The notes under the pieces were generated by a model. That model ran no database searches. It saw only the letters and a list, made by a program, of their open reading frames with translations, and was not told the origin of the DNA. DNA of 64,000 bases, taken from a virus. Taxonomy: Duplodnaviria; Caudoviricetes. Made by a program: the position numbers and the translations under genes. Positions 17,320-61,013 of this stretch are shown here, one piece after another. The stretch is from positions 1,412 through 65,411 of the IMG/VR virus record IMGVR_UViG_3300027863_001757, one strand, 5' to 3'. The first letter of the stretch is position 1. Every line of letters starts with the position of its first letter.

Positions 17320-17356
17320 ACTTAGTTATTTACTATCGAAAACCAGGAAGTGTCGG
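17320..17356 (-). promoter_or_regulatory. Conserved 37-bp promoter-like motif, copy 1 (upstream of gpD operon)
   Basis: CCGACACTT-N12-TAGTAAATAACTAAGT on the - strand; same motif at five other operon starts. Confidence 0.75.
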
Positions 17357-28409: not shown

Positions 28410-29276
28410 TTAGGCGAGTATCCGAATCTTGGCGAGAATCTCGGGGCGGGTGACGCCCTGGCCGATCTCAGACCACACGAGCCAGCCGGTCTTGAACCGG
28501 GTCTTCTGCTCGATGGCCTCGGTATTGAGCGATTCGCGCACCGGCATCTTGCCGACTTCCTCGTCTGGAACAAGCAGTATCTCGTTCATTTCAGCGGACG
28601 CCGTGAGCAGAATGCCGCCTGTGCCGTAGTTCTTGATGACACCCTTGGTCCGCAGTTCCGCGCGGGTTTCCGGGTCGAGGTCCCAGTCGCGCATGTCATT
28701 GAACCGGCGACCGCGCATGACGATGTACTTGACTGACAGCTCCAGATCCTCGACGATAGAAATCGCCTCGTTCAAGGCGTCGTCCGTGAGCTTGCCGCCC
28801 GTGACCTCGATAGTGTTCGCGGCGGGCACTGAGGCTGAAATGACAGTGATCGTGCGCCTGTCCAGCTCCTTGCGAATCTGGTCGGCGGCTGATGTCTGGA
28901 TGTCCATAAGGGTGCCGATGTTGCCGTTTTTGAGGACCGAGACATCGACCATAGGTGTCGAGTGAATCCTGTGAGTCGGAAACTCTATCTCGTCCTGTCC
29001 GAGTTCCTGCTCGCGGGCTTCGCCCTCATTGCTGATCCAGTAAGCCTTGACCTTGGGCTTCTTCTGATAGATAGGGCGCTCGCCTTTGGGCAGCGTGTGC
29101 TGAGTCAGAAGGAGCGAAGTGATCTCCTTACGCTTTATCTCCTGCTCAATCGGCTCGGCAATTGCCGCCGCCAGCGCGCGCATTCCATCCGGAGATTCCA
29201 AAGCCTCGCTCATCAGGCGGGCCATGGCCTCCATGTATTCCTGGCTGTGAATGTTAACCTGAGTTGTTTCCAACAC
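28410..29276 (-). CDS. Major capsid protein (HK97 fold)
   Basis: 288 aa following protease/scaffold and decoration genes; ADQIRKELDRR..., GWLVWSEIGQGVTRPE C-terminal pattern. Confidence 0.8.
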   Translation of the reverse strand: MLETTQVNIHSQEYMEAMARLMSEALESPDGMRALAAAIAEPIEQEIKRKEITSLLLTQHTLPKGERPIYQKKPKVKAYWISNEGEAREQELGQDEIEFPTHRIHSTPMVDVSVLKNGNIGTLMDIQTSAADQIRKELDRRTITVISASVPAANTIEVTGGKLTDDALNEAISIVEDLELSVKYIVMRGRRFNDMRDWDLDPETRAELRTKGVIKNYGTGGILLTASAEMNEILLVPDEEVGKMPVRESLNTEAIEQKTRFKTGWLVWSEIGQGVTRPEILAKIRILA

Positions 29277-29283
29277 TCCCTCC

Positions 29284-29646
29284 TTATATGAGCAGGCGGA
29301 ACTTCAGTGTCCCGCTTGAAACTGAGATCGCCTTGGCGACGACCACGTCACCCTCAGTGACACCGGCCGTGAGCTTGCCGCTCGTGGAGACCTTGAGTTC
29401 ATCGTTGGCATTGATGGTGCCCTCGAAGACATCAGTCTCGTAAACGCCGCCCATGCAGAAGATGCCGGGCATCTCGCCGTTCTTGTAGTCTTTCACAAGC
29501 ACGCCGAAGCTCTTGACAGCCGGGTTGGTGTTCACGGCGAAGAGATCGTTTCCGACCAGCTTCACGAACTGGCCGCATGAACCCGCGCCCTGCATGTATC
29601 CGTCGCCGTAAGCAAGGCCGCGATGATTGGGATTAAGATATGACAC
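29284..29646 (-). CDS. Capsid decoration/cement protein
   Basis: Small Gly-rich beta protein (GQFVKLVG...GVYETDVFEG.INANDELKVSTSGKL) between scaffold and MCP. Confidence 0.7.
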   Translation of the reverse strand: MSYLNPNHRGLAYGDGYMQGAGSCGQFVKLVGNDLFAVNTNPAVKSFGVLVKDYKNGEMPGIFCMGGVYETDVFEGTINANDELKVSTSGKLTAGVTEGDVVVAKAISVSSGTLKFRLLI

Positions 29647-29754: not shown

Positions 29755-32700
29755 TTAGTTCTTGTTGCCTGCGCTCTGGCCGACACGCTCCCGGTATGCG
29801 GCCATGAAGCCCGTCTTGAGCTTGTCTTCCAGGCTTGTATTCTTGTCATCCACATCGAGCGGACGTACGCCCGCATCCGTGCGAAGCTGGCGGTCGGCCT
29901 GTGAGGAGCCGGGCTTGTCCTTGTCTTTGCCTTTATCCTCGCCTTCGCCCTTTCCGTCGGTGTCGGATTTCGAGCATTCGGGCTTTGCCTGCACTGCTCT
30001 GTCGTAAGCGGCCTCGGTCGCGGTGAACGCATCGTCGGAAAGCTCCGAAAGGCGGCCCAGTTCCTTTTCACGCTCCTCGTCGGAAGCGAATGTCATCCCA
30101 GCCTTTTCAAGCTTCGCGACAAGTTTCGCGGCACGGGACTTGTTTGCGGCTGCCTTGCTTTCCGCCTCAAGCTCCTGAACCTGTTTTTGAAGCTCCAATA
30201 CCTGGTTCTTGAGGTCTTTGTTTTCCGTCTCAAGCTCCTTTATTCGGGCCTTGTCGTCTGCCGGTGTGCCGCCTCCGCCAGCAGGCGCGTTCTTCTTCGC
30301 AGCTTCTTCACGCTGCTCGTCTGTCTCATGCTCTTTCTTGTCGTCTTCCACTGAGCTGCCTCCTGTGTCTGTGGGGTTGGTTTGCCTTGCCTCCTGTGAG
30401 CCGACCTGCGTAATTCGCGCGTTTTCATCAGCGCCTTTGCGGTCCAGCAGTCCAAGGCCGGTAAATGTAACACCATGTAAAATCTCGAAGACCGGCTTGC
30501 CCTGATAATCGCCTCCCTTGTATTTGCGGAGGTGAATGCAGTAGTCGTTCTTCGACGTCATCGTCTTGCCGCAGATAGAGCACTCCCCAGCCTCGTAATC
30601 ACACTCCATCGAGACCTGGCTGATGATGCCGCGTTTCATGAGCTTGTAAGCAAGCGCGGCGGTAGGGGTATCTTTCACATACAGCTCGCCCACGCACTCG
30701 ACCCGGCCGCCAGTCTCATCCTCAACGAACTCAGCGCCCACGATCCCGCCGACGATGTCGGTGAGATCCTGAGAGTGCTTAAGGTCTATCTTCTTGTTGA
30801 TCGCCGTAGTGTACCGTGCCGCCAACTCGTCGGCTGCGAAGTGGTCGCCGTTCTTATTGGTCCCCGCACGGCACATAATGAAGCTGAACTGTGGGTCACC
30901 CGCGTTTGGGTTGATGTCTATAGCGTCGGCTGAGAGCTGTGTAGACCCGGCAATGCATACCTCGACCGGAATGGACGTGTGACAGTTAGCGGGCAGCGAG
31001 GCGGCCGCAGCACTGGGCGCACCGCTGGATTTTGAGGAGATGAAGAGCAGCTCGCGGCCGGTCTTGCCCTCGCTTCCTTTGCCGAGAACGATGTTGTACT
31101 CCACATCCATTCCCCTGACGCGAACGTTGCCGAGGCGCTGTGAGAAGATATCGCGGATCTCCTTTTCCGTAGGGAACGCCTTGTCGCGGTAGGACATGAG
31201 GACAGTCCCATACTTACCACGAGCCTCAGTCGCAAGGCTCTCGATGAGCGAGCGTATGCTGTCGCGATCATAGTGCGTGCGTGACTGATAGCTCCTGCGG
31301 TTGTCGTCGAGGAGCGTCTTATCGGCCCAGCGGTTCATAAGTCCCTCGACAAAGTGCAGGGAGTACTCATAGTCGTTGTTCGAGAACTGGGTGATGTACG
31401 GTGGGTCGAGGTAAAGCACATCCGCGCCGAACTTGCGCACGGCTTCCACAGCGTCACCGTGGAACGCCTTGCACTCCTGGCCGTTGTCGAATACCAGCTT
31501 ATTGAGCTGGGCCGCGTAGCGTTTGAAGCTCTCGACCATGCTGGAGACCGGCAGGTTCACAAGCTGGTTCTCTTTTACACCGGCGTCTGATTCCAGGTCA
31601 GCCTTGAGATTGAGTTTCGAGCGATGGAACTGACCATATAGGCTTTTGGCTTTCACCGTATTACCGAGCGCGGCAAGCGCAAGGTCTTTCTTGTAACCGG
31701 GCAGCTTCTGGATATTCGCCCACACTTGATCGAGCCACGCGAGCACTTTCTTGGTGTAGTAGTAGCCGTGGAAGTTGTCGACGACGAATGTGCCTGCGTT
31801 CGAGTTCGGCGCGAGGACCTTCTCGATATCCTCGTCAGTCAAGGTCTCGTGCGAGTTTTCAACGACGGCACGGGCGACGTGGTAGGGATAGAGCAGCAGG
31901 TCGTTGGCTATGACCTTCAGGCCCTTGCGCTTGAAATGATACGCTACATTCGCGCCGCCGGAGAACGCGTCGAGGAGGGTCTTCGCGTCCTTCGGAACCT
32001 GCCGCTCTATCCAGCCGAGCATCATGTATTTATTGCCCATGAAGCCCGTAACGCGGACTGGGTCCATTCCTGCCTGACAGGAGAGCAAGTCCACGTCATC
32101 CGCGAGAGGCGCGTCGGCCAGTGCCGCCATGTTCTCCTCGATGCGTAGCTCAGCCTTGGATGCCTCGGGCTCGTGCCGCTTCACCCAATCCTGGGCTTTC
32201 TCCATAGTCCAGCCGTCGGGATTCTTCTCGGTTCCTTCGTCTTTGCTTAGGACATGCTTCTTGGCAAAGCGATACGCCTGCAGGACCATCGCTTTCGGAT
32301 CATGGCCTTCGGGGACCAGCTCTTTCTTCAGCCTGCCGATAATAATTGCGATACCGTCAACGCCGTCAAGGTCTTTGCGCCTGAAGCTATCCGGCTCGAA
32401 CTGCTCGGGATCGCGTACGCGGTAGCGGATCTCGTTTTCGGTCTCGTCCCACTCGGCCTGCGCCTGCATTTGCGAGCATGCTGGACACAGCCCCGCCGAT
32501 TGTTTCAACTTGCCCGACCGAGAGCATACGAACAGGCGCTCAATGGCCTGCGAGTTCTCGGACTGTCGGGAAGATATGTAATAGCGGTGCTGCTGCGAAC
32601 TGATCCGGCTTTCCATGCCGTTTGCTGAGATGATGTCTTTCATCTCGGCTTCGTTCGGATAAGCATGGTCGCGGTACGATATGAGCCAATTCGGAATGTG

Positions 32701-33639
32701 CTTCGCGTTGGCAAGAAACGTCGTGAAGAACTCGCCGGCGTTAGCTTTGGTGACAGTCTTGTGGTCTGTCTCATAATGGTGAGTTTTTGAGTCTCCTACG
32801 AGTGTAAGGCCGTCCCAGTAGGTCATGAGACCTTCGGTGAAGTGGTAAGCCTTCTCATAGTTGGTCGTCGAGAATTCGGTCGCGTAGGGAGGATCAAAGT
32901 AGGCGAGATCGACCTTTGCGTCCGCCAGCACGTCGTTTACATCCTTGCAGATTGCCTTACACTCTTTGCCGTTATCGAAGATGAGCGCGTTGATACGCGC
33001 CACATTGTTTAGGAAGCGCTCTTTGAATTCGTCCGGCGTGTCCTGCCGCTTGCCGTATTCGGTCGAAGAGGAAAAGTGCCCGAAACCGCCCTTGCCTGCA
33101 AGACATGCCTTGCCGAGAGCAAAGAGCGCAATGTCCTTCTTGTAGCCAGAAAGCGCATCGATATTTGCCCGGATGTTGTCGATGATAGTGTGGACACCAT
33201 CGGCGAAAAAGAGGCCCTTGAAGTTGTCCCTAACGAATGTGCCGGCCTTAGGATTGTCGGCTATGAGCGCATCAAGTTCTTCCTGGCTGATCCGGACGGA
33301 GTTATTTTCAATGATAGCCCTGGCGATATGATAGCTGTAGTGGAGTCTGTCGTTGGCAATGACCTTGAGGCCCTTGGTCTTGTACATATACGCCACGACC
33401 GACGAGCCGGAGAACGCGTCGAGGATCGAGCTTATGTCTTCCGGCGTATGCTTCCATATCCAGTCGACAAGCTTCTGCTTTGAACCTATGTAGTTAGTGA
33501 TGTATTTCGGACGCTCATCCGGTGGCAGTTCTTCCGTAACAAGCTCCGCCGCCTGGGCGAGCAGGTCGTCCAGGTGACGTGAAGCGTCTGTCTCAAGAAG
33601 AAAAGCCAGCCGATCAAGATCCGTGGCAAAAAGCTGCAT
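29755..33639 (-). CDS. Fusion: two N6-adenine DNA methyltransferase domains + prohead protease + scaffold coiled coil
   Basis: MTase 1: NYIGSK...DAFSGS...DPPY (32884). MTase 2: FMGNK...DAFSGG...DPPY (31397). Then NKNGDHF...DLKH...VSMEC...CSICG...CIHL...GADENA protease-like domain and an acidic/coiled-coil scaffold. One uninterrupted 1294-codon frame. Confidence 0.88.
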   Translation of the reverse strand: MQLFATDLDRLAFLLETDASRHLDDLLAQAAELVTEELPPDERPKYITNYIGSKQKLVDWIWKHTPEDISSILDAFSGSSVVAYMYKTKGLKVIANDRLHYSYHIARAIIENNSVRISQEELDALIADNPKAGTFVRDNFKGLFFADGVHTIIDNIRANIDALSGYKKDIALFALGKACLAGKGGFGHFSSSTEYGKRQDTPDEFKERFLNNVARINALIFDNGKECKAICKDVNDVLADAKVDLAYFDPPYATEFSTTNYEKAYHFTEGLMTYWDGLTLVGDSKTHHYETDHKTVTKANAGEFFTTFLANAKHIPNWLISYRDHAYPNEAEMKDIISANGMESRISSQQHRYYISSRQSENSQAIERLFVCSRSGKLKQSAGLCPACSQMQAQAEWDETENEIRYRVRDPEQFEPDSFRRKDLDGVDGIAIIIGRLKKELVPEGHDPKAMVLQAYRFAKKHVLSKDEGTEKNPDGWTMEKAQDWVKRHEPEASKAELRIEENMAALADAPLADDVDLLSCQAGMDPVRVTGFMGNKYMMLGWIERQVPKDAKTLLDAFSGGANVAYHFKRKGLKVIANDLLLYPYHVARAVVENSHETLTDEDIEKVLAPNSNAGTFVVDNFHGYYYTKKVLAWLDQVWANIQKLPGYKKDLALAALGNTVKAKSLYGQFHRSKLNLKADLESDAGVKENQLVNLPVSSMVESFKRYAAQLNKLVFDNGQECKAFHGDAVEAVRKFGADVLYLDPPYITQFSNNDYEYSLHFVEGLMNRWADKTLLDDNRRSYQSRTHYDRDSIRSLIESLATEARGKYGTVLMSYRDKAFPTEKEIRDIFSQRLGNVRVRGMDVEYNIVLGKGSEGKTGRELLFISSKSSGAPSAAAASLPANCHTSIPVEVCIAGSTQLSADAIDINPNAGDPQFSFIMCRAGTNKNGDHFAADELAARYTTAINKKIDLKHSQDLTDIVGGIVGAEFVEDETGGRVECVGELYVKDTPTAALAYKLMKRGIISQVSMECDYEAGECSICGKTMTSKNDYCIHLRKYKGGDYQGKPVFEILHGVTFTGLGLLDRKGADENARITQVGSQEARQTNPTDTGGSSVEDDKKEHETDEQREEAAKKNAPAGGGGTPADDKARIKELETENKDLKNQVLELQKQVQELEAESKAAANKSRAAKLVAKLEKAGMTFASDEEREKELGRLSELSDDAFTATEAAYDRAVQAKPECSKSDTDGKGEGEDKGKDKDKPGSSQADRQLRTDAGVRPLDVDDKNTSLEDKLKTGFMAAYRERVGQSAGNKN

Positions 33640-33681: not shown

Positions 33682-33718
33682 ACTTTGTTATTTACTACCG
33701 GAATCCACAAAGTGTCGG
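33682..33718 (-). promoter_or_regulatory. Conserved 37-bp promoter-like motif, copy 2 (upstream of MTase-protease/capsid/tail operon)
   Basis: CCGACACTT-N12-TAGTAAATAACAAAGT. Confidence 0.75.
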
Positions 33719-33855: not shown

Positions 33856-34533
33856 ATGAACGCAGCAGAGCATATCGTACAATCGTTCTTCTGGGAAGCC
33901 GATAGCCCGACGAAGAAGCCGCGCGGGCGCAGATACCTTACGATCTCAAACGTGATCGGCGGCGGTAATCGGGAGGTGGACGTGCTCGCCATCTCCGGGG
34001 ACGGCGCGGACAGGATCCGCGTCGAATGTGAGATTGCGGTCAATTGGCCGTTCACTTGCGAGGGAATAGAGGACCGCATCCGCTACAAGATGATCAATGA
34101 CAAGCATTCACGCAAAGCGGTAGAGGACATATTCGGTACCGACGACTACCGCAAGGTCTTTGTCGTCTGGAGCAGTCCCTTTGCCGAAGAACGCAGCCTG
34201 CCTGAAGACCTTCTCATAGAGCAGTGCGAGATGTGGTCGATCCAGGATTTGCTCCGAGACCTGATGTTTAGCATCGGCACCGCCAACTATCAGGATGATG
34301 TGCTGCGGCTGATGTCGATGATGTCGAGCATGCTTTCCCCAAACGCCGCATTGCGCGAGCTTGGCTGCAGCCGTGTATCTGCCGATGTATGCCAGGTAAC
34401 TGCTGCGACCTGCATTGATGCAGTCGCTCAACTCGGCAGGAAAGTCGCGGCTGACTCGGGCCACAAAACGGTATCGGCTCGACACATAAGGACCGCGCTG
34501 AACCAGATAAGTGAGCTCTGCAGAAAATGCTGA
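33856..34533 (+). CDS. PD-(D/E)XK-like nuclease fold fused to C-terminal histone fold
   Basis: REVDVLAI...IRVECE restriction-nuclease-like core; C-terminus LRELGCSRVSAD...AQLGRKVAADSGHKTVSARHIRTAL matches the histone-fold RVS/RKT loops. TATAAT at 33804-33809 upstream. Confidence 0.65.
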   Translation: MNAAEHIVQSFFWEADSPTKKPRGRRYLTISNVIGGGNREVDVLAISGDGADRIRVECEIAVNWPFTCEGIEDRIRYKMINDKHSRKAVEDIFGTDDYRKVFVVWSSPFAEERSLPEDLLIEQCEMWSIQDLLRDLMFSIGTANYQDDVLRLMSMMSSMLSPNAALRELGCSRVSADVCQVTAATCIDAVAQLGRKVAADSGHKTVSARHIRTALNQISELCRKC

Positions 34534-34554: not shown

Positions 34555-34890
34555 CTACCTGCTTGTCATTTGCTGAAGGATCTGTTTCGCGCATTGTTCC
34601 GCTGTGGCGAACATGTCGGTTTCCACTATCTCCCCGCGCATCCCATTATACGGTGACATCGTTGCCTGGTGATATTCGAGAAAGCCCTCAGGCAGCGACT
34701 TGATGTCGTTTTCTACCAACCGATTGATGACCCAGTCGGCGTCTTCAGCGAACTCTTCGTTTCCCGGCAGGTATTCCATCACGATATCAAGCCCAGGCCC
34801 GGGTCCCTGGACCCACACGCCGATTGGCTCGTAGTGCGGATCGATTTCACGGTCACGAACAGCATGCTCTATCATATACCTAAGCCGCAT
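34555..34890 (-). CDS. Small acidic hypothetical protein (second gene after MuF; candidate immunity)
   Basis: Start moved to MRLRYMIEH; overlaps the preceding gene. Confidence 0.65.
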   Translation of the reverse strand: MRLRYMIEHAVRDREIDPHYEPIGVWVQGPGPGLDIVMEYLPGNEEFAEDADWVINRLVENDIKSLPEGFLEYHQATMSPYNGMRGEIVETDMFATAEQCAKQILQQMTSR

Positions 34891-35362
34891 CCCATTCCTC
34901 CGCGATCCGAGTGTGCTCTTCGAGGAGATCGGCGTCGATCTGCTCGAACACAGCCTTGTTTTCAGATTTATATAGCTGCCAGTCTTCCCAGTCGGCAACC
35001 ATCTCGACATCCTGCGTAGGAAACAGCAGCTCTACATGAAACTTACGCCCACGATCATCCATCAAGTCGATAAGATACCCATCCTCTTGGCTCCAATCCA
35101 CGACCTTGATTGTGTGAGCATACTGCCAGCCGTTGTTATAGCCGGCTGACTTGAACAGCAGCCAGAGATCGGTCTTGGTCACACTGCCTACAGCATCAAA
35201 GTGCGGGGCGACGCGGGTGATCATATAGCTGTCTATAAGGCCAAAGCCGAGTGGTTCATCATTGCCTTCTCGCATCTCCATCCAGGAACCCTTTGTGTTG
35301 AACTCGTCAAAGAGTCTCTGCAGCCTCGCCTTTTCGTTTGCGATGAAATCTCTCATGATCAT
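34880..35362 (-). CDS. Acidic hypothetical protein directly after MuF (candidate immunity)
   Basis: 160 aa; ATG overlaps the MuF stop codon. Confidence 0.7.
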   Translation of the reverse strand: MIMRDFIANEKARLQRLFDEFNTKGSWMEMREGNDEPLGFGLIDSYMITRVAPHFDAVGSVTKTDLWLLFKSAGYNNGWQYAHTIKVVDWSQEDGYLIDLMDDRGRKFHVELLFPTQDVEMVADWEDWQLYKSENKAVFEQIDADLLEEHTRIAEEWDAA

Positions 35363-39949: not shown

Positions 39950-41542
39950 TCAACCTCTCTTGCGTCCGAAGAAGCGGCAAGTCGGGGAATCGAAAGTCGT
40001 CTCTGCCTGCGTGACTCCACAGCGGTTGTGCTCCTCGCCAAAATAGCCACAAGAGTCGCACATCTCGCCGACACCGGCGCTGGAGTATAGGGCTGCCTGC
40101 GATTGTCCGTCCGGGCGATTCTTTGCCGGATCGAGGCCGAGCATCTGCTGCGCGCTTTCGATACTCATTATTCCTGCCACGACCATATCCACAATGGGCT
40201 TGACTTGCTTTTCGTCGAGGAGATCGACTGACTTGTCCTCATGCTGCCGGTTGGCCGTTTCAGTATCCGGGTCGAGGTCCATTTTGAGCTGCAGAGACGA
40301 CCGACTTATGAGCTTGCGGTCGTATAACTCGATGAGGAGCTTCTTGAAATCGACGGCGTCTGTGGGATCGAGGTCGTTGAAGACGAACTGGACACTCTTT
40401 CCCTGGTGTCCCGCAATCTCAAGCCAGTCGCTGTATATCCAGTCGAGGATGGTGCGCGCGGCATGCTTTATCTCCCGGATCATGATGAGCATCTTCTGCA
40501 TCGACACTGATGCTGTCGCGAAGTTGGGGCCATCGCCGGCAACCAGAGACCGCGAGAGGCCGAGCGCAACGACTATGTCTTCCTTTACATCCTTGACTTT
40601 GTCCTCAGTGTTGAGAACCTGTCCCTCAGTGCCGTGAGTTTCGACGGTCACATAGAAAGGCACGACGAGGCCGCTCTTCATGTCCATCTTGTTGACCATG
40701 TCGCGAGTCTGTTCTAGCATCTTCTGGTCAGGCATCACCATCTTCTGGCCGAACGCGCCGCCGACCTTAATCAGCCTGAATGGCGTGGCCCAGCGTTTGG
40801 CAATCGCCTTCTCCGCGCGGCGATAGTCACGAAGTAACTCAATGGAGTCGAATGCTGGGAGGACAAGCGAGTTACCGCGAGGAGAGAACGCTGGCGCATC
40901 CCACTTGAGATGCAGAGTCTGTTCGACGGGCAACTTCAACCCGTCACCGACGGTCGGGCTGTCTTCTGGGAACTGCTGTACCTCTACAAGCTGTCCCTGG
41001 GCATATTTCACCTTGATGGATACCGGGTTTACACAAGTGACTTCCTCAAAGTCCTTGCCGTCTTTGGTATATCGTTTGAATCCGACTGCGTCACCCTTTA
41101 CGAGAAGTTGCAGGATCATATCTTTCACGAACTCAGAGATACCGAGCCTGTCGGACAGATCGTTTGCCTCCTGCTTTACGGTCTCATCGTCGCTTGTTAT
41201 CCTTATCTCATCGCCCACGGCAAATGTTCGCCAGGAGTTGACACAGTTCTTGACCAGAGGCTCCTCGACATAGTACTCCCAGGCTTTTTTCGCGCGCTCT
41301 TCCCAGGTCTTTGGAATAGCGCAGTGATCGGGATTGATGTGGGCAAACACAGCCGAATCCAGCATGGCCGCTGTCGCCATGGGAGATATGACTATGCCTT
41401 GTGCCTGTGTATCGTGTTCGTCGGGTATGGCTGCCTGGCTGGAATGTTTTCTTGAGCGTGACTTTCGACTGCAGTTTTCCACATTGACCTCTATGCGCAA
41501 TTCTGTCGCACCTGCATAGCGCGCCAGGAGGCACACATCCAC
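39950..41542 (-). CDS. Portal protein
   Basis: Located between terminase and MuF; YYVEEPLVKNCVN...LLVKGDAV...PRGNSL..PA...IVVALG pattern. Start uncertain (41542 or GTG 41483). Confidence 0.8.
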   Translation of the reverse strand: MDVCLLARYAGATELRIEVNVENCSRKSRSRKHSSQAAIPDEHDTQAQGIVISPMATAAMLDSAVFAHINPDHCAIPKTWEERAKKAWEYYVEEPLVKNCVNSWRTFAVGDEIRITSDDETVKQEANDLSDRLGISEFVKDMILQLLVKGDAVGFKRYTKDGKDFEEVTCVNPVSIKVKYAQGQLVEVQQFPEDSPTVGDGLKLPVEQTLHLKWDAPAFSPRGNSLVLPAFDSIELLRDYRRAEKAIAKRWATPFRLIKVGGAFGQKMVMPDQKMLEQTRDMVNKMDMKSGLVVPFYVTVETHGTEGQVLNTEDKVKDVKEDIVVALGLSRSLVAGDGPNFATASVSMQKMLIMIREIKHAARTILDWIYSDWLEIAGHQGKSVQFVFNDLDPTDAVDFKKLLIELYDRKLISRSSLQLKMDLDPDTETANRQHEDKSVDLLDEKQVKPIVDMVVAGIMSIESAQQMLGLDPAKNRPDGQSQAALYSSAGVGEMCDSCGYFGEEHNRCGVTQAETTFDSPTCRFFGRKRG

Positions 41543-41566: not shown

Positions 41567-41603
41567 ACTTAGTTATTTACTAGCAACTGCGCGCAAGTGT
41601 CGG
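41567..41603 (-). promoter_or_regulatory. Conserved 37-bp promoter-like motif, copy 3 (upstream of portal)
   Basis: CCGACACTT-N12-TAGTAAATAACTAAGT. Confidence 0.75.
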
Positions 41604-46106: not shown

Positions 46107-47033
46107 TCATTTTGTGCCTGTCGCGGCCGTAAACAATGTATTTTGACCATCAATTATGGATAGCGGTTTTGCTGTGGTCGCTCCAAATGGGTCATCATCT
46201 GCGGGCACCACTTTGCCGCCGAACACTCGCTTGACCTCATGAATCTGCTTCACGGCTTCCGGTGATGAGCCAATCATCAGCTTCAGTTCGTCCATAGTGA
46301 ACTTCACCTTATCAGCCCATTTTGCGGGAACGACAACCGAGTCTTCGCGGACAAATACTACAATGTCCTCGATAATCGACGACCTAATGCCTGCGTAACC
46401 TCGGGTGGCAAGCGCGTGTTCCAACCTGTGCGCATGGTCGGATTGTGCCGTCGAGTTGCTGGACAATGCTTGCTGCAACTGATGTGCATTCCATGCATCG
46501 TCCCAGGTCTTCCGGTAAGCAGCGAAAGTCTGCTCGGACGGTGGTGCGTAAGACTTGACATTCGTCGTCCTTACAGCCTGCCTGAGAGCATCATGACCAA
46601 TATACCGGATCGCCCAGTTGTGAATGACGTTGAATCGCGCTCGGAGCGTATCAAATGTTGCATCATCGAGCCGACCGGTTTCGTGCGACTTACGGGCATT
46701 TTCCATCCGATGTCGCAGCCAGGCGTAGTATGATGCATCCAGCATCCGATAGACCGGCTCGCAGTCCAGTTCGTAGCCGAATCTGGGATCATGCTCCTCG
46801 AATGAATCTAGATCAATCGCAACCCAGAGGATATGATAATCCGGCACGACTTCAGCGGATGGATCAGCAGAACCTTGCGAAGCCATGATCTCGGTGACGA
46901 GTTCCTCCCTATGCTCGCGGACCAATCGCCGAATATCATCAGTGATAAGCCAGTCCGGTTCCAGCCTGAGCTTACTGTCCGGCTGTATGCTCGCCCTTAG
47001 CGCGTTCTTTGTCAGTATCTCAAGGTAAGCCAT
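46107..47033 (-). CDS. Hypothetical protein following primase (N-terminal TubC_N-like segment)
   Basis: Start MAYLEILTKN coupled to the primase stop (TGATG); LRLEP...IRRLVREHREELV pattern. Confidence 0.65.
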   Translation of the reverse strand: MAYLEILTKNALRASIQPDSKLRLEPDWLITDDIRRLVREHREELVTEIMASQGSADPSAEVVPDYHILWVAIDLDSFEEHDPRFGYELDCEPVYRMLDASYYAWLRHRMENARKSHETGRLDDATFDTLRARFNVIHNWAIRYIGHDALRQAVRTTNVKSYAPPSEQTFAAYRKTWDDAWNAHQLQQALSSNSTAQSDHAHRLEHALATRGYAGIRSSIIEDIVVFVREDSVVVPAKWADKVKFTMDELKLMIGSSPEAVKQIHEVKRVFGGKVVPADDDPFGATTAKPLSIIDGQNTLFTAATGTK

Positions 47034-49717
47034 CAAAACTCCTCGTAGCCCGGTGAAGCCCCGTCCGCCCTGGTGTTGTCTGCGAAACTGCAATCATCTG
47101 TCTGCTCGGAAGGTGTATGTCGTGTATGTTGGTGTATGTTTTCTATACACTCCTCATGCGTGTGCGCGCCCGCATGCATGTATGTACGCGCATGAGGGGT
47201 AGTGGGGGAACATACACCTTTATGCACCACATACACCCCCTCACCGTCCTCCGAGAACAAATTCGCTGTCGGAGCCAGCATCCATTGGCTTATCCGTTTG
47301 GACTTGCCTGCGGACACTATCCTATACTCACCTATCACGCGGTCACGCTGCTGTCCCAGCCGTCTGCCGAAAGCGATTCTCTGCGACCGCTCTCCTCCTT
47401 TGCCGAGGTCGAGCGCGTCTATCTCCGACACAAGCTCGAACAGGTCAGTTACACCCACTTTCTCCTGACCGAACTTCTCCCACCAGGCATCCACGATCTG
47501 CCGCCACATGGCTCCCTCAATGTCTGCTGCTTCATAGAACTCGTGCAGGTTAGACAGGAATCCTTGTATTCCCGAATGCTGCAATATCCCTCCAATGATG
47601 GCAGTCCATTGTTCGTATGAACCCAGCGGTTTGGCTTGGGAAGCGGGCATACCGGCTGATACCCAAGCCTGTACGAGCGTCAGGGCTGCGCCTACCAGTT
47701 CGCCTCGATTATCAAGTGCCCAGTTGCGAAGCTTCTTCTGCTTGAACCCATCGCGAAACCACGGACGATCTACTTTTGCGTCCAGCCGAATACGAATACA
47801 TCGTCTGGCGATTTCAGTACTCATAGTAGGGTTGTTAGCCGTAGTCACCCAGACACAGCGCACTGGAAAGTGCAGGTTCTCGGACTTGCCCAGAATCCTA
47901 TCCTCCCATATCGTCGCCGTAAGTGCTGAAGCGAGCGACCCGGAATTGAGCGGCCGCGTAATGTTATCCAACAGGACCACGCTTCTCGCACTGCGAAGCT
48001 GCGCTGTTATCCGCTTCCGCCACTCATCGTCATCCCTGGCCTCGGAGATGGTCGATACCTGTTTGCCGCAGGCCGGAGTCAAAAGGACATCGGCGAGAAG
48101 TCCTTTTCCCGTGCCCGCCTGCGGAGCTTCGATAAGGTGATTCGGCGTCGGCCCGTCGATGAGGTCTCGCACGAATGGCAAGAGCAGCAGTCCCGCGGCA
48201 TGCGCGCGGTCGGCTTCGTCCACAAAAGGGAAGTCTGAGATCATATCTAGGATAAGACTTCCGGCGGAATCTACCTCTTCCTGCGACGGCGTGGGCGATA
48301 TCTCCGGTATATTGAATCCGGGCCTAGACATCCGATATGTTTTTCCTGCTGCATGGTAGCCTTCAGCGATTTGCAGTGATCCATCAGGAGCGAACACTGG
48401 AACATCGGTGATCCGCGTCAACACCGGCAGTGGTGGATTGGGTGTAGCCAACACATCTCTCACGACATCGATTGGAGGCTTGGCTGATTCCTCATCTTCG
48501 CCGCTTACCCAGTTTGCCACACGTGCGAGTTCGTGACGCAGCCTGTCGGGAGTCAGTTCCCTCGGGACTAACGTTCCGTCATCGTCCTTTTCGAGCCTGG
48601 AGGGAAGACCGATATACCGAAAATACTTCGGAGGATTATTCGCGTAGATAATAGCCCTCCAGCACACGGCAGTCACGCTGCGCAAATCCTGACAGTCGGC
48701 ATAGATGGTGAGCAGGCCGTTGCTTGCCGCTGGGTGCGCCTGAGATTTTGCTCCTTCGGCATCTCCCAATGCTCGTTTCTTTCTCTGCCGCCGTTTGCCA
48801 GTATGGTCGGCACAGGTCTCTTTGACAATGCCGACGGCTGCGCCAATCGTCATCTGGCCGTAGGTCTGCGCGCCATGCAACTCGTCCCACTTGGGCCTGA
48901 TGAGTCCTGACTCGCGAAACAGCCTATCCATCCTGACCGGGTCCTTGTCGGTCCAGTATGCCAGCATGCAGCAAAGCGCCGAATCCGCTGCACTAGCATC
49001 GCTGTTGTAGTCTCCAATGTCGCCGTTCCATAGCTTACGGAACTTCTCTCCGTTTGATGCCGACAGCGCTCTTTGAATGAGCACAGGATCGCTCATTCCG
49101 TTTGGTCGAGCGTTCTTGACATTCTCTTTGGGCGGCATATCGTTGTCGGGCTTATCGCCGAACATGCTCCTATAGATCGCCGCCACCGCACGCTCAGCGT
49201 CCATTATCTCCGCTACCGCTACGGGAAGCAGCTTGCCCGTGAAGACCACAAGCCGTCGGTCGGAGTATATCTCGAACTTTGGATGCTTGGCGGTTCTGCA
49301 TCTGGGACCAGGTTTCTTTGCCCGCGCGATGATGTGTATTCCTGTTCCCGACCGGCTGAGTTCCGTATACGAACCTATGCGCCCGATTATCTCTCGTGCC
49401 CACGGCTCGACTTCGCCATCTGCTACAACGTGGTCGAGGTCGATGAAGATGTAGGGGTCTTCCTCGGAAAGCACGAACCCTATGCCGTCGAAGCGGTTCT
49501 TTGGCTTTGCGGCAGCCTCCACCACGTCATCGAACGTATGCCACGTCGCCGGATTATTGGTCTTGGCATTGCCGCGCCCGACCTTGTCCGTGCGGTACGG
49601 CATCTTGGTAGGCGTGCCGTCGCGATCCTCGATCCGGTAGCAGACCCACTGGCGAAGCGCCTTGAGTTCGTCGGGTATCAAATCGTAAGTGGGTGCGTGC
49701 GGTGCCGCATTAGTCAT
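47033..49717 (-). CDS. Primase-polymerase (AEP, NrS-1-like) / helicase fusion
   Basis: QWVCY...KMPY...TW.TF...FDGIGFVL...IDLDH...YTELSRSGTGIH...FEIY; PriCT-like D.SAAD.ALC..LAYW; C-terminal P-loop AGTGKGLL and VLLDNI. Confidence 0.88.
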   Translation of the reverse strand: MTNAAPHAPTYDLIPDELKALRQWVCYRIEDRDGTPTKMPYRTDKVGRGNAKTNNPATWHTFDDVVEAAAKPKNRFDGIGFVLSEEDPYIFIDLDHVVADGEVEPWAREIIGRIGSYTELSRSGTGIHIIARAKKPGPRCRTAKHPKFEIYSDRRLVVFTGKLLPVAVAEIMDAERAVAAIYRSMFGDKPDNDMPPKENVKNARPNGMSDPVLIQRALSASNGEKFRKLWNGDIGDYNSDASAADSALCCMLAYWTDKDPVRMDRLFRESGLIRPKWDELHGAQTYGQMTIGAAVGIVKETCADHTGKRRQRKKRALGDAEGAKSQAHPAASNGLLTIYADCQDLRSVTAVCWRAIIYANNPPKYFRYIGLPSRLEKDDDGTLVPRELTPDRLRHELARVANWVSGEDEESAKPPIDVVRDVLATPNPPLPVLTRITDVPVFAPDGSLQIAEGYHAAGKTYRMSRPGFNIPEISPTPSQEEVDSAGSLILDMISDFPFVDEADRAHAAGLLLLPFVRDLIDGPTPNHLIEAPQAGTGKGLLADVLLTPACGKQVSTISEARDDDEWRKRITAQLRSARSVVLLDNITRPLNSGSLASALTATIWEDRILGKSENLHFPVRCVWVTTANNPTMSTEIARRCIRIRLDAKVDRPWFRDGFKQKKLRNWALDNRGELVGAALTLVQAWVSAGMPASQAKPLGSYEQWTAIIGGILQHSGIQGFLSNLHEFYEAADIEGAMWRQIVDAWWEKFGQEKVGVTDLFELVSEIDALDLGKGGERSQRIAFGRRLGQQRDRVIGEYRIVSAGKSKRISQWMLAPTANLFSEDGEGVYVVHKGVCSPTTPHARTYMHAGAHTHEECIENIHQHTRHTPSEQTDDCSFADNTRADGASPGYEEF

Positions 49718-52700
49718 CTACACGCCTCCCGCGAGCAGCAGTGACAGGAATGTCTTCCTGGCGTCGACTTGCACGCGCTTGGCACAGTTGGTTATGCCCC
49801 AGTGGTCACCAACAATGATCGCAGTCTTCTTCGCGCGGGTGACACCTGTATAAAGCAGGTTCCTGTGGTGCATGAATGAGTGCGACTTATGCGCGATGAC
49901 TATCGAGCAGGGAAACTCGGAGCCCTGGCTGTTGTGGTTTACAATACCGTTTCCAACAAAACTGTGGCTGCCCGGCACAGATACGTCGTAGACATGTCTA
50001 TTGCCGCTGCCTATCTCGACCACCGGGTCGAAGAAGAATCCTTCCCGGAACAGTCGATCAAGCTCCATGCCTGCTTTGCCGGTTTCGGCAATGTCGGAAA
50101 CATGCCGGTTAATATGCTCCACGTGGAGGTGATTCAGCTTCGCTGCCCCGCAAATGATTCTTGCGAGCAGACGTCCGATATCCCTGGCTTCTGGGTAGTT
50201 TCTTCCTCCGCGTCTGCGAAGCTCCTCTCGAAACTCGCGAATCAGTTTCCGGCCAAAAGGTATGCCGCCCCAGTTGCTCTTGATTGCTTCAGCGTTGGAT
50301 GTTTCGCAAGCGACCTCAAGAGCGAACTCCTTGATCTCTTCGCTAAAGCCCACCCTTGACCGAAAGAGGTGGAAGTTGCTGGCTCCCATAATCTCGACGC
50401 GCCACGCTTCCGACCAGTCCTTTTCCGGGATGGCGTCACGCATTTTGTATCGTTTTGAGACGATGCCGTGATGAAGAAGTAGTAGATGCACTTCCCTGGC
50501 CACTCTTTCACTCGCGGTAGCAAGCACGATCAGTCCTGTCACTCCTCCATCTGTATCGAACAGGCCCCTGAGAAATGCTGCCTGGACATTCGGCGAGCTG
50601 CGCAGGATTACAGGAGGGACGCTCTTATCTGGAGCCGTGCAGTAGTCGAGCCCACAGCGATAGAGCAGGTCTCGTGCGGCCTTATTGTGGAAATAGGCGG
50701 TAAAACGAGAACCTTGAGCTACCTGCCTGACTGTCGTCCTTACACCCAGCACCTTCTGCACGCCAGCAATGTATCGGAGCATCAGATCGTGGGAGCCTTT
50801 CGTAACCTCCACTCGGTAATCCTCGTGGTCTGAGTAGTTTCCATCTCCGACCATTACGCCCATTATCCAGGCGGCCTCTTCGTCTATGGTCACTTCGCGA
50901 CCCACCATCGGCATCTTGATGTAGTCGAAGTTTCGCTGCACGCTTACAGTGTCTCGACGCAACACCAGAACATCTCCTTCAACAACCTCTGGCATGAGCT
51001 TCCAGCAGAAACCATTCTCATCAGCGGTCAGGACAGGGTGTTCGTAGCTTCCCGATAGCTCGAACCCGGCCCTTGTTCGCAGTTGAATCACGGGCTTGAA
51101 ACCACCGTTGTAGATAGATTCTGTAGACTCAATCCCATCACGAGCGGCTATGGTTATTTCATGGGGCAAGGAAGTTTTCTCAGGAACACCGGACGCGAGT
51201 TCTCCTATAGGCAGAAGCCCCCGATTTGTGGGGATCAGCGTGTCTTCGGATATGCACTTGTGTATGGTAAGGGCGTAGGCAAGCTGCAGGTCGCTTCGGT
51301 GCGGCGATCCCGGCTCTATGAAAACCATCTTGTCATCGAAATCGACGGTAAGCGAGCCATCCGCGCCAAGATCCCGCACATAGCCCATCGAGCCGTTCAT
51401 TACTTCCAGATCGTAGTTGTTGCGGGTCTGAATGACCTTGTCACCTACAAGCAGCTTCGGACGCCTGCCGAGCTGGACAGGTAAGACGTCGTAATCCCAC
51501 AGCTTCTTTTGTATGAGGGACTGCAGCCTGATGTTGAGTTCCGCCGTTCCGAGCGGACCCTTGTGGGTCGGGGTGAGCACCTGAACGTCACGGAGCAGGT
51601 CGAAACCGAGCTTTTCGGAAAGCACCTGGTCGAAGATGTCCAGTATGAACTGCTGGACACGTTCGGCTTCCGTATGTTGGTTGGCCACATACCAAGGCCC
51701 CCGCAGGCCGTCTTCGACCCTGCATGTCTTTCTCACCTCACCCTTGAGGATTGCGATGCTGTTCTCCTTGAGCACTCCAGCCTGCCGCACGACATCTTCG
51801 AGTATTGTCGTCGGTATTGCCTTTGACTCGATGAGATCACGAAGAATATTGCCCGGTCCAACCGGCGGAAGCTGATTATGGTCGCCGACAAGGACTACGG
51901 CTGTTCGCTCAAGATTAATGGCCTGAAACAACCGCCAGGCGAGCGAAACGTCTATCATGGAGGCTTCATCGACTATCAGGATATCGGCGGATATAGGGTT
52001 TTCAGCGTTACGGGAGTAGGTCTTGCCGTCGAAACCGAGCAGCCTGTGAATCGTTGATGCCGATTGTCCGGTCGACTCCTCCATACGCTTCGCCGCCTTG
52101 CCGGTCGGAGCACAGAGCACAGCTTTGAGCTTTCGAGACTCACAGAGTCGAGTGATCGCATCGATGGTGAAGGTCTTGCCCGATCCGGCTCCGCCCGTAA
52201 TAAGTGAGATCGCATGCTTACATACCATCATCGCGGCCTCATGCTGACGATGATTGAGCCTTGGAGATATGCGCCGGATCATGGAGTCGATGTCAGGTAA
52301 ATCCCTAAAGTGCGGATTCATATCCTTGCCCCGGGCAAAGACACGCGCCAAATCTTCCTCCATTTGTCGGATTTCAGGCTTTGCCACAAGGAACCGGCTG
52401 TCGGCCGCATAGCAGGTCAGGGCTTTCTTATCGATGAGTTCGTCCAAATACCTCTCAATTTGCTCCCGGCTGTCGAGTGTATCCATCACCAGGAGCTTGT
52501 TTGCCCGGTTAAGCAGGTCTTCATACTCGACCCAGCAGTCACCCTGATCCAGCGCATCCTCGATGCAGAACTGCAATCCCGCGCGAACACGGTTCGGGTT
52601 GTCCTTCGCAATGCCGACCTGCCTAGCGATCTTGTCGATCCTTTTGAACCCGAAGCCGTCGATCTCTCCGACGATGACATACGGATCATGCTCTATAATG

Positions 52701-53233
52701 CCGACAGCGTTGTTGCCGAGCTTCTTCACCAGCTTCGTGACCTGATGGTGGGTCAGTCCGTACGCTGCAAGCGCGGTCATTGCCTGGTTGATATGACTCG
52801 TCTCAAGCCAGTGAACGCGAAGCGACTCGATGACCGGCAGCGGCACTTTTGCAGCCTCCGCGACTTTCTCAGGCTCATCTATGAGGCTGCGCTCGAAATC
52901 CGAGCCGAACCGCTCGGCAATGATCCTCGCCTTTGCCGGGCCGATCCCCTTGATGTCGGGGTTGTTCGCGAGGTAGTTTGCAAGCCCGCGGGCGTCCATC
53001 TGCCGATCCAATTCGATGCTTGCAACTTCGAACTGTCGGCCGTATTTGGGATGCTTAACAAACTTTCCGTGCAGCACCAGAGGCTGGTTTTCGCTTACGA
53101 CGATATTGCCTGCGAACGAAACACGCTCACCGCGTTCCGTTATGAAGCGTCCGGCGGAGAAGTCTGCGGATGAATAGAAGACTCGCTCGACCTCTCCCCG
53201 TATTCGGATGTGCTCGGTTGTTGCATTTGACAT
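49718..53233 (-). CDS. recD2: RecD2-like SF1B helicase interrupted by an intein
   Basis: HhH region (IKGIGPAKA), GGAGSGKT, TIHRLL, DEASM, GDHNQLPPVGPG, AYALTIHK|SQGSEF, RNLLYTGVTRAK. Confidence 0.9.
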   Translation of the reverse strand: MSNATTEHIRIRGEVERVFYSSADFSAGRFITERGERVSFAGNIVVSENQPLVLHGKFVKHPKYGRQFEVASIELDRQMDARGLANYLANNPDIKGIGPAKARIIAERFGSDFERSLIDEPEKVAEAAKVPLPVIESLRVHWLETSHINQAMTALAAYGLTHHQVTKLVKKLGNNAVGIIEHDPYVIVGEIDGFGFKRIDKIARQVGIAKDNPNRVRAGLQFCIEDALDQGDCWVEYEDLLNRANKLLVMDTLDSREQIERYLDELIDKKALTCYAADSRFLVAKPEIRQMEEDLARVFARGKDMNPHFRDLPDIDSMIRRISPRLNHRQHEAAMMVCKHAISLITGGAGSGKTFTIDAITRLCESRKLKAVLCAPTGKAAKRMEESTGQSASTIHRLLGFDGKTYSRNAENPISADILIVDEASMIDVSLAWRLFQAINLERTAVVLVGDHNQLPPVGPGNILRDLIESKAIPTTILEDVVRQAGVLKENSIAILKGEVRKTCRVEDGLRGPWYVANQHTEAERVQQFILDIFDQVLSEKLGFDLLRDVQVLTPTHKGPLGTAELNIRLQSLIQKKLWDYDVLPVQLGRRPKLLVGDKVIQTRNNYDLEVMNGSMGYVRDLGADGSLTVDFDDKMVFIEPGSPHRSDLQLAYALTIHKCISEDTLIPTNRGLLPIGELASGVPEKTSLPHEITIAARDGIESTESIYNGGFKPVIQLRTRAGFELSGSYEHPVLTADENGFCWKLMPEVVEGDVLVLRRDTVSVQRNFDYIKMPMVGREVTIDEEAAWIMGVMVGDGNYSDHEDYRVEVTKGSHDLMLRYIAGVQKVLGVRTTVRQVAQGSRFTAYFHNKAARDLLYRCGLDYCTAPDKSVPPVILRSSPNVQAAFLRGLFDTDGGVTGLIVLATASERVAREVHLLLLHHGIVSKRYKMRDAIPEKDWSEAWRVEIMGASNFHLFRSRVGFSEEIKEFALEVACETSNAEAIKSNWGGIPFGRKLIREFREELRRRGGRNYPEARDIGRLLARIICGAAKLNHLHVEHINRHVSDIAETGKAGMELDRLFREGFFFDPVVEIGSGNRHVYDVSVPGSHSFVGNGIVNHNSQGSEFPCSIVIAHKSHSFMHHRNLLYTGVTRAKKTAIIVGDHWGITNCAKRVQVDARKTFLSLLLAGGV
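49931..51256 (-). mobile_element. Intein with LAGLIDADG homing endonuclease (442 aa)
   Basis: Begins CISEDT after TIHK; ends VYDVSVPGSHSFVGNGIVNHN before Ser; two LAGLIDADG helices (WIMGVMVGDG, FLRGLFDTDG). Confidence 0.93.
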
Positions 53234-53670
53234 GTATCCGCAAACCTCCGGTGGCAGCGCAGTAAATACTCCTGAACAAACCGGCACGCGCACTGCCGGT
53301 TGGAGCAGAAAAAGACAGGAATGCCGTAGTCAACGATTATCGAAAGCGCCGCGCCTGTAACCGAAGCCGGATGTGCCCCCGAGCGGTAATTGCCCGACAG
53401 CAGTTCCTCAAAGTCTGCCTCGACCACGATGCACGAACACAGATAGGTCTGAAGCTTCCTGAGCTCGCTGCGAAATCTGTCGCGTTCCCTGATGACTGTA
53501 TGCACGAAGTCCTCGGCGGTCTTCCTCTCAATCGCCACATCGTGCTCAAAACCGGCGAGCGAATAGTCCCCCGCCGGCAGAGCACGGCGCTCGATGAGGA
53601 ACCGCTCAGAAGGCAGCGAGTAAGGCTCCTGCTCTCGCGTGTCGACTACGATACTGACTTTCTCGGCCAT
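53140..53670 (-). CDS. ERCC4/XPF-domain nuclease
   Basis: IVVDTREQ...GDYS...VAIERKT..DF motif. Confidence 0.9.
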   Translation of the reverse strand: MAEKVSIVVDTREQEPYSLPSERFLIERRALPAGDYSLAGFEHDVAIERKTAEDFVHTVIRERDRFRSELRKLQTYLCSCIVVEADFEELLSGNYRSGAHPASVTGAALSIIVDYGIPVFFCSNRQCACRFVQEYLLRCHRRFADTCQMQQPSTSEYGERSSESSIHPQTSPPDAS

Positions 53671-56303: not shown

Positions 56304-56340
56304 ACTTAGTTATTTACTATCGCAATCCACGAAGTGTCGG
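56304..56340 (-). promoter_or_regulatory. Conserved 37-bp promoter-like motif, copy 4 (upstream of replication operon)
   Basis: CCGACACTTCGTGGATTGCGATAGTAAATAACTAAGT, identical to copy 5 in the opposite orientation. Confidence 0.75.
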
Positions 56341-58506: not shown

Positions 58507-58543
58507 CACTGATTACTTACCGGAGAATGTTGAGAAGTGTCGG
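58507..58543 (-). promoter_or_regulatory. Degenerate copy 6 of the promoter-like motif (upstream of 58353/MTase/sigma block)
   Basis: CCGACACTT-N12-CGGTAAGTAATCAGTG; keeps CCGACACTT and GTAAnTAA at the same spacing. Confidence 0.6.
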
Positions 58544-60976: not shown

Positions 60977-61013
60977 CCGACACTTCGTGGATTGCGATAG
61001 TAAATAACTAAGT
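60977..61013 (+). promoter_or_regulatory. Conserved 37-bp promoter-like motif, copy 5 (upstream of endolysin/recombinase operon)
   Basis: CCGACACTTCGTGGATTGCGATAGTAAATAACTAAGT on the + strand. Confidence 0.75.

Follow-up and report, generated by a model that had tools for sequence, protein, structure and literature searches.

The window analysed here is a 64,000-nucleotide stretch of DNA of a tailed phage, namely the 65.4-kb IMG/VR provirus record IMGVR_UViG_3300027863_001757 minus its first 1,411 bases. Its head module contains a gene whose product joins, in this order, an N-terminal leader, a D12-class DNA adenine methyltransferase (MTase; MT1), a mid module of ~100 amino acids (aa), a second, paralogous MTase (MT2), a conserved linker motif, a protease domain with a zinc knuckle and a coiled-coil scaffold. 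The explanation that we prefer, and believe somewhat more than we doubt, is that this is a nested protease/scaffold gene of the phage lambda C/Nu3 kind with acquired N-terminal MTases, which would be delivered into the capsid and carry out protective methylation. The parts of this explanation differ in strength. The anatomy of the gene can be stated with high confidence; physical encapsidation of the MTases, argued from analogy with known nested genes, is probable; whether their purpose is protection from restriction is, in our judgement, evenly balanced.

The fusion is real and conserved

The initial annotation of the window had placed a 1294-codon open reading frame (ORF) at the protease/scaffold position behind the portal and MuF genes; its translation is indeed free of stops, and its neighbours are as described. 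The frame was checked against independent sequence. Contigs from two hot-spring metagenome runs (X2, possibly the source of the window, and X3, an independent sample and study) tile the fusion ORF with 0 differences, the X3 tiling leaving uncovered a single 130-base bin, 30405-30534. Since the X3 contigs are identical to the window, no hidden stop lies between the MTase and protease parts. In two more distant runs (X4 and X5), contigs of relatives deviate solely by in-frame or mutually compensated indels. These sequence comparisons exclude both a hidden stop and an artefact of assembly.

We fetched 80 loci from IMG/VR, 80 from bacterial genomes and 2 from NCBI, and counted as complete those homologous ORFs that exceed 700 codons. 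There were 142 of them, and the MTase-protease-scaffold fusion is intact in 140; the remaining 2 look truncated. The architecture proposed for the window is therefore found in other phages as well. In the protein database, 442 relatives are similar in length, and those listed keep the whole architecture at 52-86% identity, and the same architecture recurs in ~120 protein clusters. The fusion is retained at 50-86% identity in prophages of many phyla, and broken copies are exceptional: truncated genomic copies were seen at L085, L103, L111, L123, L154 and L156, a few such copies being expected since prophages decay. Short homologues that could be read as stand-alone proteases turned out to be fragments at the ends of contigs or copies with frameshifts.

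A scaffolding protein is nested in the fusion gene

As judged from a structural model, the region after the protease has the usual anatomy of a scaffolding protein: an acidic N-terminus, a Gly-rich linker, a coiled coil, a variable charged spacer and a conserved C-terminal helix, LRTDAGVRP...GFMAAYRERVG. The model, made with AlphaFold2 (AF2), predicts a scaffold helix of 52 residues with a predicted local distance difference test (pLDDT) score of ~85, further helices and the conserved C-terminal helix.

Codon 1097 of the gene lies at the beginning of this region and is a GTG preceded by a strong Shine-Dalgarno (SD) sequence (Table 1). In the alignment column of this codon, ATG was found 116 times, GTG 11 times and TTG 10 times, i.e., a start codon is present in 137/137 distinct homologous DNA sequences (in two of them within one codon of the column). 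Where the column encodes Val or Leu, the codon is always GTG or TTG and never another synonym. An SD core of 5-6 bases precedes the column in 136 of the 137 sequences and a 4-mer in the last one; the conserved Gly-Gly or Gly-Asp before the internal start is the SD read as protein. When all columns of the gene were scanned, a start codon and an SD coincided elsewhere only at the EGLM motif. An internal start there (M272/M768) was rejected: the SD-like GAGGG is forced by the Glu-Gly codons, and the product would lack motif I and DPPY. Since both start and SD are kept in the codon-1097 column in all 137 sequences, we conclude from sequence conservation that a 198-aa scaffold is translated separately from the internal start.

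The same all-column scan revealed no conserved combination of SD and start ahead of the protease, which therefore appears always to be made joined to the MTases; the initial annotation had considered that the protease might be made only from an internal start, and no conserved start is available for it. The main start of the gene has a GGAG 4-mer only, in 43 of 49 distinct upstream regions. The difference between this 4-mer and the 5-6-mer at the internal start suggests that the polyprotein is the minor and the scaffold the major product. The 1294-aa ORF had been taken for the scaffold itself. A scaffold region is present in it, but the nested start had been missed, and the full-length polyprotein is probably a minor, co-assembling species.

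Nested protease/scaffold genes are known as C/Nu3 in phage lambda, I/Z in Mu and UL26/UL26.5 in herpesviruses. As in these, the protease is located 5' of the scaffold in one frame, and the internal start leads to a co-terminal scaffold; the gene lies between the portal and capsid genes, and the protease would enter the procapsid through the shared C-terminus. Unlike in genes of the lambda C/Nu3 type, one or two MTases and often an extra small module precede the protease here, and the protease belongs to a subfamily with a zinc knuckle.

The protease domain and the linker

The initial annotation had described the domain in front of the scaffold as an assemblin-like His/Ser protease. The His and Ser motifs, the knuckle (CxxC...CxH, aa 1020-1036) and a long helix were found as described, but the match to S78 peptidases is under the cut-off: PF04586 (Peptidase_S78) of Pfam scored 19.3 bits versus 21, and TIGR01543 scored 21 versus 59, both over the same stretch, DLKH(955)SQD to QVS(1010)MECD. 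The term "assemblin-like" therefore rests on transitive homology and on a middling fold match.

Searching 1.8 billion representatives with the protease domain as the query returned 969 relatives, and 15 of 24 diverse distant ones match phrog_18299, "head maturation protease" (best E 4.8e-26). Alignment A1 shows both His955 and Ser1010 to be invariant; in distant relatives (alignment A2) they are at least 90% conserved. By tblastn, phage records gave matches to the capsid maturation protease of Gordonia phage Stormageddon and to gp19 of phage G.

The AF2 model of the protease-scaffold part has a mean pLDDT of 60.6, with values of 60-86 over much of the protease. Just two non-helical folds match at a Z of at least 5, the varicella-zoster virus protease (1vzv; Z 6.7, root mean square deviation (rmsd) 4.8, 102 residues aligned) and T4 gp21 (5jbl; Z 5.0, rmsd 6.0, 118 aligned), both under the level that the tool regards as safe; a weaker non-helical match, 7nmm (Z 4.4), covers the same protease region. 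Foldseek with this model gave nothing at E <= 0.001 and lists the proteases of human cytomegalovirus and Kaposi's sarcoma-associated herpesvirus at weak E values of 0.04-0.3. Sequence searches of the PDB yielded C2H2 zinc-finger look-alikes of the knuckle and coiled coils, and no solved structure related to the protease, to the MTases or to the mid module was among the hits. Judged from its sequence relatives and predicted fold, the domain is an assemblin-fold capsid maturation protease of a distinct subfamily that carries a CCCH knuckle and is not S78 sensu stricto.

The linker motif, whose general form is (C/F/I)HT(S/T)(I/F/V)PV(E/D), is kept in every architecture, whether it follows MT1 or MT2. 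The CHTSIPVE of the window falls in a low-confidence, unstructured part of the AF2 model. Because it is a conserved linear motif in a disordered linker beside the protease, we consider it a candidate site of self-cleavage and release. LR(S/T)DAGVRP before the C-terminal helix is a second candidate cleavage motif.

Five proteins of 1,369-2,462 aa (P0305, P0316, P0328, P0338 and P0350) have an N-terminal protease of this family and a long C-terminal part in which Pfam recognises no domain; they may be further examples of fused head proteins.

Methyltransferase domains, leader and mid module

The two complete N6-MTase domains of the initial annotation, each with DAFSG and DPPY, were recovered: the D12 family of N6-adenine MTases in Pfam, PF02086, matches the fusion protein twice (E 6.5e-45; 154.3 bits versus a cut-off of 22). 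Both domains have the same order of motifs, IGSK/MGNK, DAFSG, DPPY and SYRD, and are collinear paralogues of ~37% identity. Motif I and DPPY are nearly invariant in 18 homologues (alignment A3). The model of the Dam subfamily, TIGR00571, gives 31 bits per domain against a curated cut-off of 114.85, which places MT1 and MT2, as far as this model tells, in the D12 class but outside the GATC Dam subfamily. The leader matches no family.

The 142 complete relatives fall into 85 with leader-MT1-protease-scaffold, 46 with leader-MT1-mid-MT2-protease-scaffold as in the window, 9 that are without the mid module and the 2 truncated-looking ones; MT2 is present in just 55. Since 85 relatives have MT1 alone, the leader and MT1 can be regarded as the core cargo and mid-MT2 as an inserted cassette. 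MT1 is the MTase that single-MTase relatives retain (69-80% identity). The extra cargo is always placed 5' of the protease and never after the scaffold.

The separate domain of ~100 aa noted between the MTases (RYRVRDP...GWTMEKAQDW) is also present and has its own predicted fold, with a core pLDDT of ~85-90 that marks it as a separate folding unit. It gave matches to a part of a BFVD "Prohead protease" and to two viral proteins that are uncharacterised. Four protease-scaffold proteins of 480-572 aa (P0252, P0256, P0258 and P0266) contain one or two mid modules and no MTase. As the module stands before the same protease in these MTase-less proteins, it appears to be a mobile companion of the protease and not of the MTases. 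Two fold assignments of the mid module, small-heat-shock/CS-like (E ~0.09) and BRX-like (Z 4.5), were both weak, and none was adopted.

A split variant is found at L164:6001-9775, where a 397-aa MT1-type gene lies after MuF and 32 nt 5' of an 849-aa MTase-(mid)-protease-scaffold gene. In a different phage, L165, an MT1-type homologue stands by itself near lysis genes, far from the head genes.

The family is represented in PHROGs. The 798-position profile of phrog_27806 matches aa 527-1289 of the fusion protein at 1298 bits, and phrog_27806 is therefore the form of this family with a single MTase, protease and scaffold. Its label is "DNA methyltransferase" only; protease, scaffold and nested gene are not recognised in it.

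Distribution

The closest relatives (80%) come from metagenome-assembled genomes (MAGs) of Armatimonadota. Further members of the family are located in prophages of Thermodesulfobacteriota, Acidobacteriota, Planctomycetota, Chloroflexota and Nitrospirota, and also of Gammaproteobacteria, Verrucomicrobiota, Zixibacteria, Hydrogenedentota and Sumerlaeota. Cultured carriers include Syntrophus buswellii DM-2, Desulfosarcina alkanivorans PL12, D. widdelii PP31, Desulfobulbus rhabdoformis DSM 8777 and Desulfofustis glycolicus DSM 9705. The GenBank phage records searched, from which close ones may be missing, gave no near match to the locus and protein matches at the level of domains only.

Whole head-module loci of 9-11 kb are 97.8-99.0% identical in DNA across differently labelled phyla (L115 versus L116; L114 versus L117 and L120). 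The pairs link a Desulfosarcinaceae contig of 2.97 Mb with a Zixibacteria chromosome, and Syntrophus buswellii DM-2 with Nitrospiraceae and Phycisphaerae MAGs. Among eleven such cross-phylum genomes, the 1291-aa fusion protein is 94-99.6% identical. Possible reasons are that the phages infect a very wide range of hosts, that they were transferred recently or that the MAGs are mislabelled.

Genomic context

The coordinates of the fusion gene, its parts and its neighbours are collected in Table 1.

Table 1. Features of the fusion gene and of the surrounding head module (positions in the window).
Feature	Position	Strand	Remarks
Fusion gene, 1294-aa polyprotein (leader/MT1/mid/MT2/protease/scaffold)	29755-33639	-	stop-free frame, 1294 codons
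N-terminal leader, 46 aa	33502-33639	-	accompanies MT1 in 140/142 complete homologues
MT1, D12-class N6-adenine MTase	32500-33501	-	IGSK 51-54, DAFSG 74-78, DPPY 249-252, SYRD 321-324; PF02086
Mid module, small beta-rich domain with C-terminal helix, aa ~395-500	32140-32457	-	AF2 model
MT2, second D12-class MTase	30985-32049	-	MGNK 534-537, DAFSG 557-561, DPPY 745-748, SYRD 816-819
Linker motif CHTSIPVE	30961-30984	-	~20-25 aa before protease core, in variable Ala/Ser/Pro-rich linker
Prohead (capsid maturation) protease domain	30385-30906	-	His955, Ser1010, knuckle C1020/C1023/C1034/H1036, His1055
Internal ribosome-binding site AGGAGG and GTG start	30349-30364	-	codon 1097, 7-base spacing
Nested scaffolding protein, 198 aa (predicted)	29755-30351	-	co-terminal with polyprotein
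Promoter-like 9-mer CCGACACTT	33710-33718	-	~70 nt 5' of fusion ATG; one of six exact copies in the window
MuF protein, 1571 aa	35359-40074	-	
Portal	39950-41542		
120-aa ORF between fusion and capsid genes (lambda gpD position)	29284-29646	-	weak match to phrog_673, "head scaffolding protein", E 2.4e-5
HK97-fold major capsid protein, 288 aa, without delta domain	28410-29276	-	NF042927, E 5e-87; phrog_2522

The large terminase subunit, portal and MuF genes lie 5' of the fusion gene; the 120-aa ORF, the capsid protein gene, head-tail genes and the sheath gene lie 3' of it. Two relatives, the Desulfosarcina alkanivorans prophage and L003, share this gene order with the window, and in all three the fusion gene is the sole protease/scaffold candidate between the MuF and capsid genes. 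The 120-aa ORF adjoins the fusion gene in 158 loci. The capsid protein, 74-98% identical among 13 aligned relatives, is the presumed partner of the scaffold C-terminus.

A MuF domain occupies aa 214-328 of the MuF protein and is followed by a weak endonuclease-VII-like match and Rho_N/HeH-like repeats; the long tail matches phrog_6577 (unknown function). The protein is likely a polyvalent, capsid-delivered one. Its counterpart in the Desulfosarcina relative has only 528 aa. Between the MuF and fusion genes, the window has an antisense ORF of 225 aa (33856-34533, +) and two overlapping small ORFs (34555-35362, -), for none of which PHROG or Pfam matches were found. This slot is variable: it holds a Peptidase_S74 protein and an FRG-domain protein in L003 and is empty in the Desulfosarcina prophage.

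A large serine integrase (62139-63590, +; phrog_95, E 1.5e-121) is encoded at the edge of the element, and a replication module (47033-53293, -) encodes a primase-polymerase-like protein and an exonuclease V/Dda-like helicase fusion. Both are consistent with a temperate phage, and the element is in keeping with a temperate myovirus.

Besides the copy upstream of the fusion gene, exact copies of CCGACACTT are found at 17348-17356, 41595-41603, 56332-56340 and 58535-58543 (all -) and at 60977-60985 (+), each ahead of an operon. The 9-mer had been noted before as a promoter motif. Five of its six exact copies are on the strand of the fusion gene; matches with one mismatch are not above chance.

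Proposed mechanism and known systems

The following course of events can be proposed. The polyprotein, made from the weak-SD start, and the 198-aa scaffold, made from the strong-SD GTG, would share the coiled coil and the C-terminal helix. Through this shared C-terminus the polyprotein would be built into the procapsid together with free scaffold and capsid protein, as in other nested systems. The protease would be drawn inside, and two folded MTases of ~38 kDa would necessarily come along. The protease would then degrade the scaffold and probably also cut the conserved linker motifs, with CHTSIPVE as the leading candidate. Since folded domains of ~38 kDa are too large to leave through the shell, the MTases would stay in the head, trapped there as internal proteins that meet phage DNA only. 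Methylation would take place either during entry of the genome or after co-ejection, in the next cell, as with P1 Dar and T4 internal proteins. The most likely benefit would be that the phage's own genome, packaged or ejected, is methylated and thereby protected when the next host restricts incoming DNA; MT2 would supply a second specificity. It is in this way that we infer co-assembly, cleavage, retention in the head and both the timing and the purpose of methylation.

T4 internal proteins (IPI*, Alt) carry capsid-targeting sequences that are cut by gp21. The cargo proposed here resembles them in that it would be directed into the scaffold core, released there by the prohead protease, retained in the head and ejected with the DNA. 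In T4, the targeting part is a short N-terminal peptide on separate proteins, whereas here it would be the whole protease-scaffold.

Phage P1 packages ~45 copies of DarB (PMC12810830), and polyvalent phage proteins delivered with the capsid are described in the passages of PMC5512222 that we drew on. As a working model only, the fusion is like P1 Dar, as presented in PMC12810830 and in those passages of PMC5512222, in that a DNA-modifying enzyme carried in the head would guard the phage's own DNA from restriction. DarB, an MTase-helicase, is a separate 2,000-aa protein that is recruited by DarA/Hdf and is not fused to scaffold or protease; packaging and co-ejection are established for P1 Dar and proposed for the fusion described here. 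In the same passages, the polyvalent proteins of Iyer et al. 2017 (PMC5512222) likewise combine several enzymatic domains, adenine methylases among them, for which action early after entry is proposed, and they centre on MuF, portal, zincin peptidase and SWI2/SNF2-methylase modules. Passages of PMC5512222 matched by term mention no fusion to a prohead serine protease and scaffold, "prohead protease" occurring in a reference title only and "scaffold" being absent. The initial annotation knew of no described example of the fusion, and our full-text literature searches likewise returned no description of an MTase fused to a prohead protease or scaffold.

Several observations weigh against encapsidated, protective MTases. 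The scores of the protease stay under the curated Pfam and NCBIfam cut-offs, and the AF2 model of this part reaches only middling confidence. The weak match of the 120-aa ORF to a scaffold PHROG leaves the division of scaffold labour unsettled. MT1-type genes occur separately in L164 and L165, so tethering is not indispensable for the MTase to be useful. The presence of MTases in virions or procapsids and cleavage at the proposed sites rest on inference. In addition, methylation needs S-adenosylmethionine (SAM) and base flipping, which are hard to picture in a densely packed head, and in order to act after ejection the enzymes would have to unfold for passage through the tail and then compete in time with host nucleases.

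Alternative explanations

The main alternative is that the fusion serves expression and not delivery. Joined to the first gene of the late head operon, the MTases would then act in the cytoplasm on replicating or concatemeric DNA, late in infection and silent in the lysogen, the enzyme would be disposed of by assembly or proteolysis, and any MTase that ended up in the head would have no function there. Ordinary Dam-like orphan MTases that are made late are common among phages, the cytoplasm gives free access to SAM, a promoter-like CCGACACTT stands directly 5' of the fusion gene, and related phages have free-standing or unfused MT1-type genes (L164, L165). For co-expression, however, adjacency suffices, yet the fusion is covalent in 140 of 142 relatives, down to 50% identity and across phyla; the added mid-MT2 cargo has never been placed after the scaffold; and the protease has no start of its own. 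We therefore consider this explanation unlikely, while giving it real weight.

Tandem D12 MTases of the M.FokI type have two D12 domains, each with motif I and DPPY, in a single chain. By this precedent, invoked in the initial annotation, MT1 and MT2 would form one enzyme in which each domain methylates one strand of an asymmetric site. The window does have two D12 domains in one chain, and a homologue, P0119, is auto-annotated "Modification methylase FokI". The analogy is weakened by the 85 relatives in which MT1 is alone and the 55 to which MT2 was added, as an insert together with the mid module. The second domain is thus, unlike in M.FokI, optional and missing from most relatives, the two domains are only ~37% identical, MT1 can be a separate gene, and no cognate endonuclease is encoded nearby. 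A joint enzyme is accordingly improbable, and the sequence data make independent specificities of MT1 and MT2 more likely.

A variant of the preferred explanation has the MTases act within the procapsid itself: tethered to the scaffold, they would methylate the genome while it is being packaged, with SAM diffusing through the shell. We regard this variant as improbable. If it were true, every virion would be fully modified regardless of the state of the producer cell, and the host chromosome and co-resident elements would stay unmodified. This would amount to a compartmentalised, self-only modification system, and it could help explain near-identical prophages in genomes labelled as different phyla.

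A role in morphogenesis or packaging is very unlikely. The MTases could methylate a packaging-recognition site, for which P1, whose pac cleavage depends on Dam methylation, provides a precedent, or they could be a bulky core mass that sets head size or internal pressure. Such a role is suggested by the location of the gene in the head module and by the physical coupling to protease and scaffold. The near-invariance of the catalytic motifs in both domains argues against a purely structural role, and the number of MTases varies between one and two while the capsid protein stays 74-98% identical, which speaks against a fixed structural need. Lastly, the long ORF could be an artefact of faulty assembly or sequencing, or a degenerating pseudogene in which the genes of an MTase and a protease have run together. 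This finds no support beyond the few truncated genomic copies and can be set aside, given the identical sequence from an independent run, the in-frame indels of relatives and the frame shared by ~140 independent loci.

Implications

What is new here is a nested protease-scaffold gene as the carrier for enzymatic cargo; the family itself is already in PHROGs as phrog_27806, with a methyltransferase label only. For annotation, this means that proteins labelled only "DNA adenine methylase" (phrog_27806, NCBI names) hide a protease and a nested scaffold gene. The cultured carriers make the fusion design directly testable.

Two routes for loading enzymes into the heads of tailed phages are known, namely by way of short targeting peptides, as in T4, or of adaptor proteins, as in P1 Dar and MuF fusions. 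If the MTases ride into the head on the protease-scaffold, this would be a third one, a loading route that is part of a core assembly gene and occurs in prophages of at least 10 phyla. If true, there would be a modular rule for cargo, namely to fuse it 5' of the protease, which would be usable for engineering the cargo of phages and procapsids. The fusion would also add a new kind of counter-restriction device to those of tailed phages.

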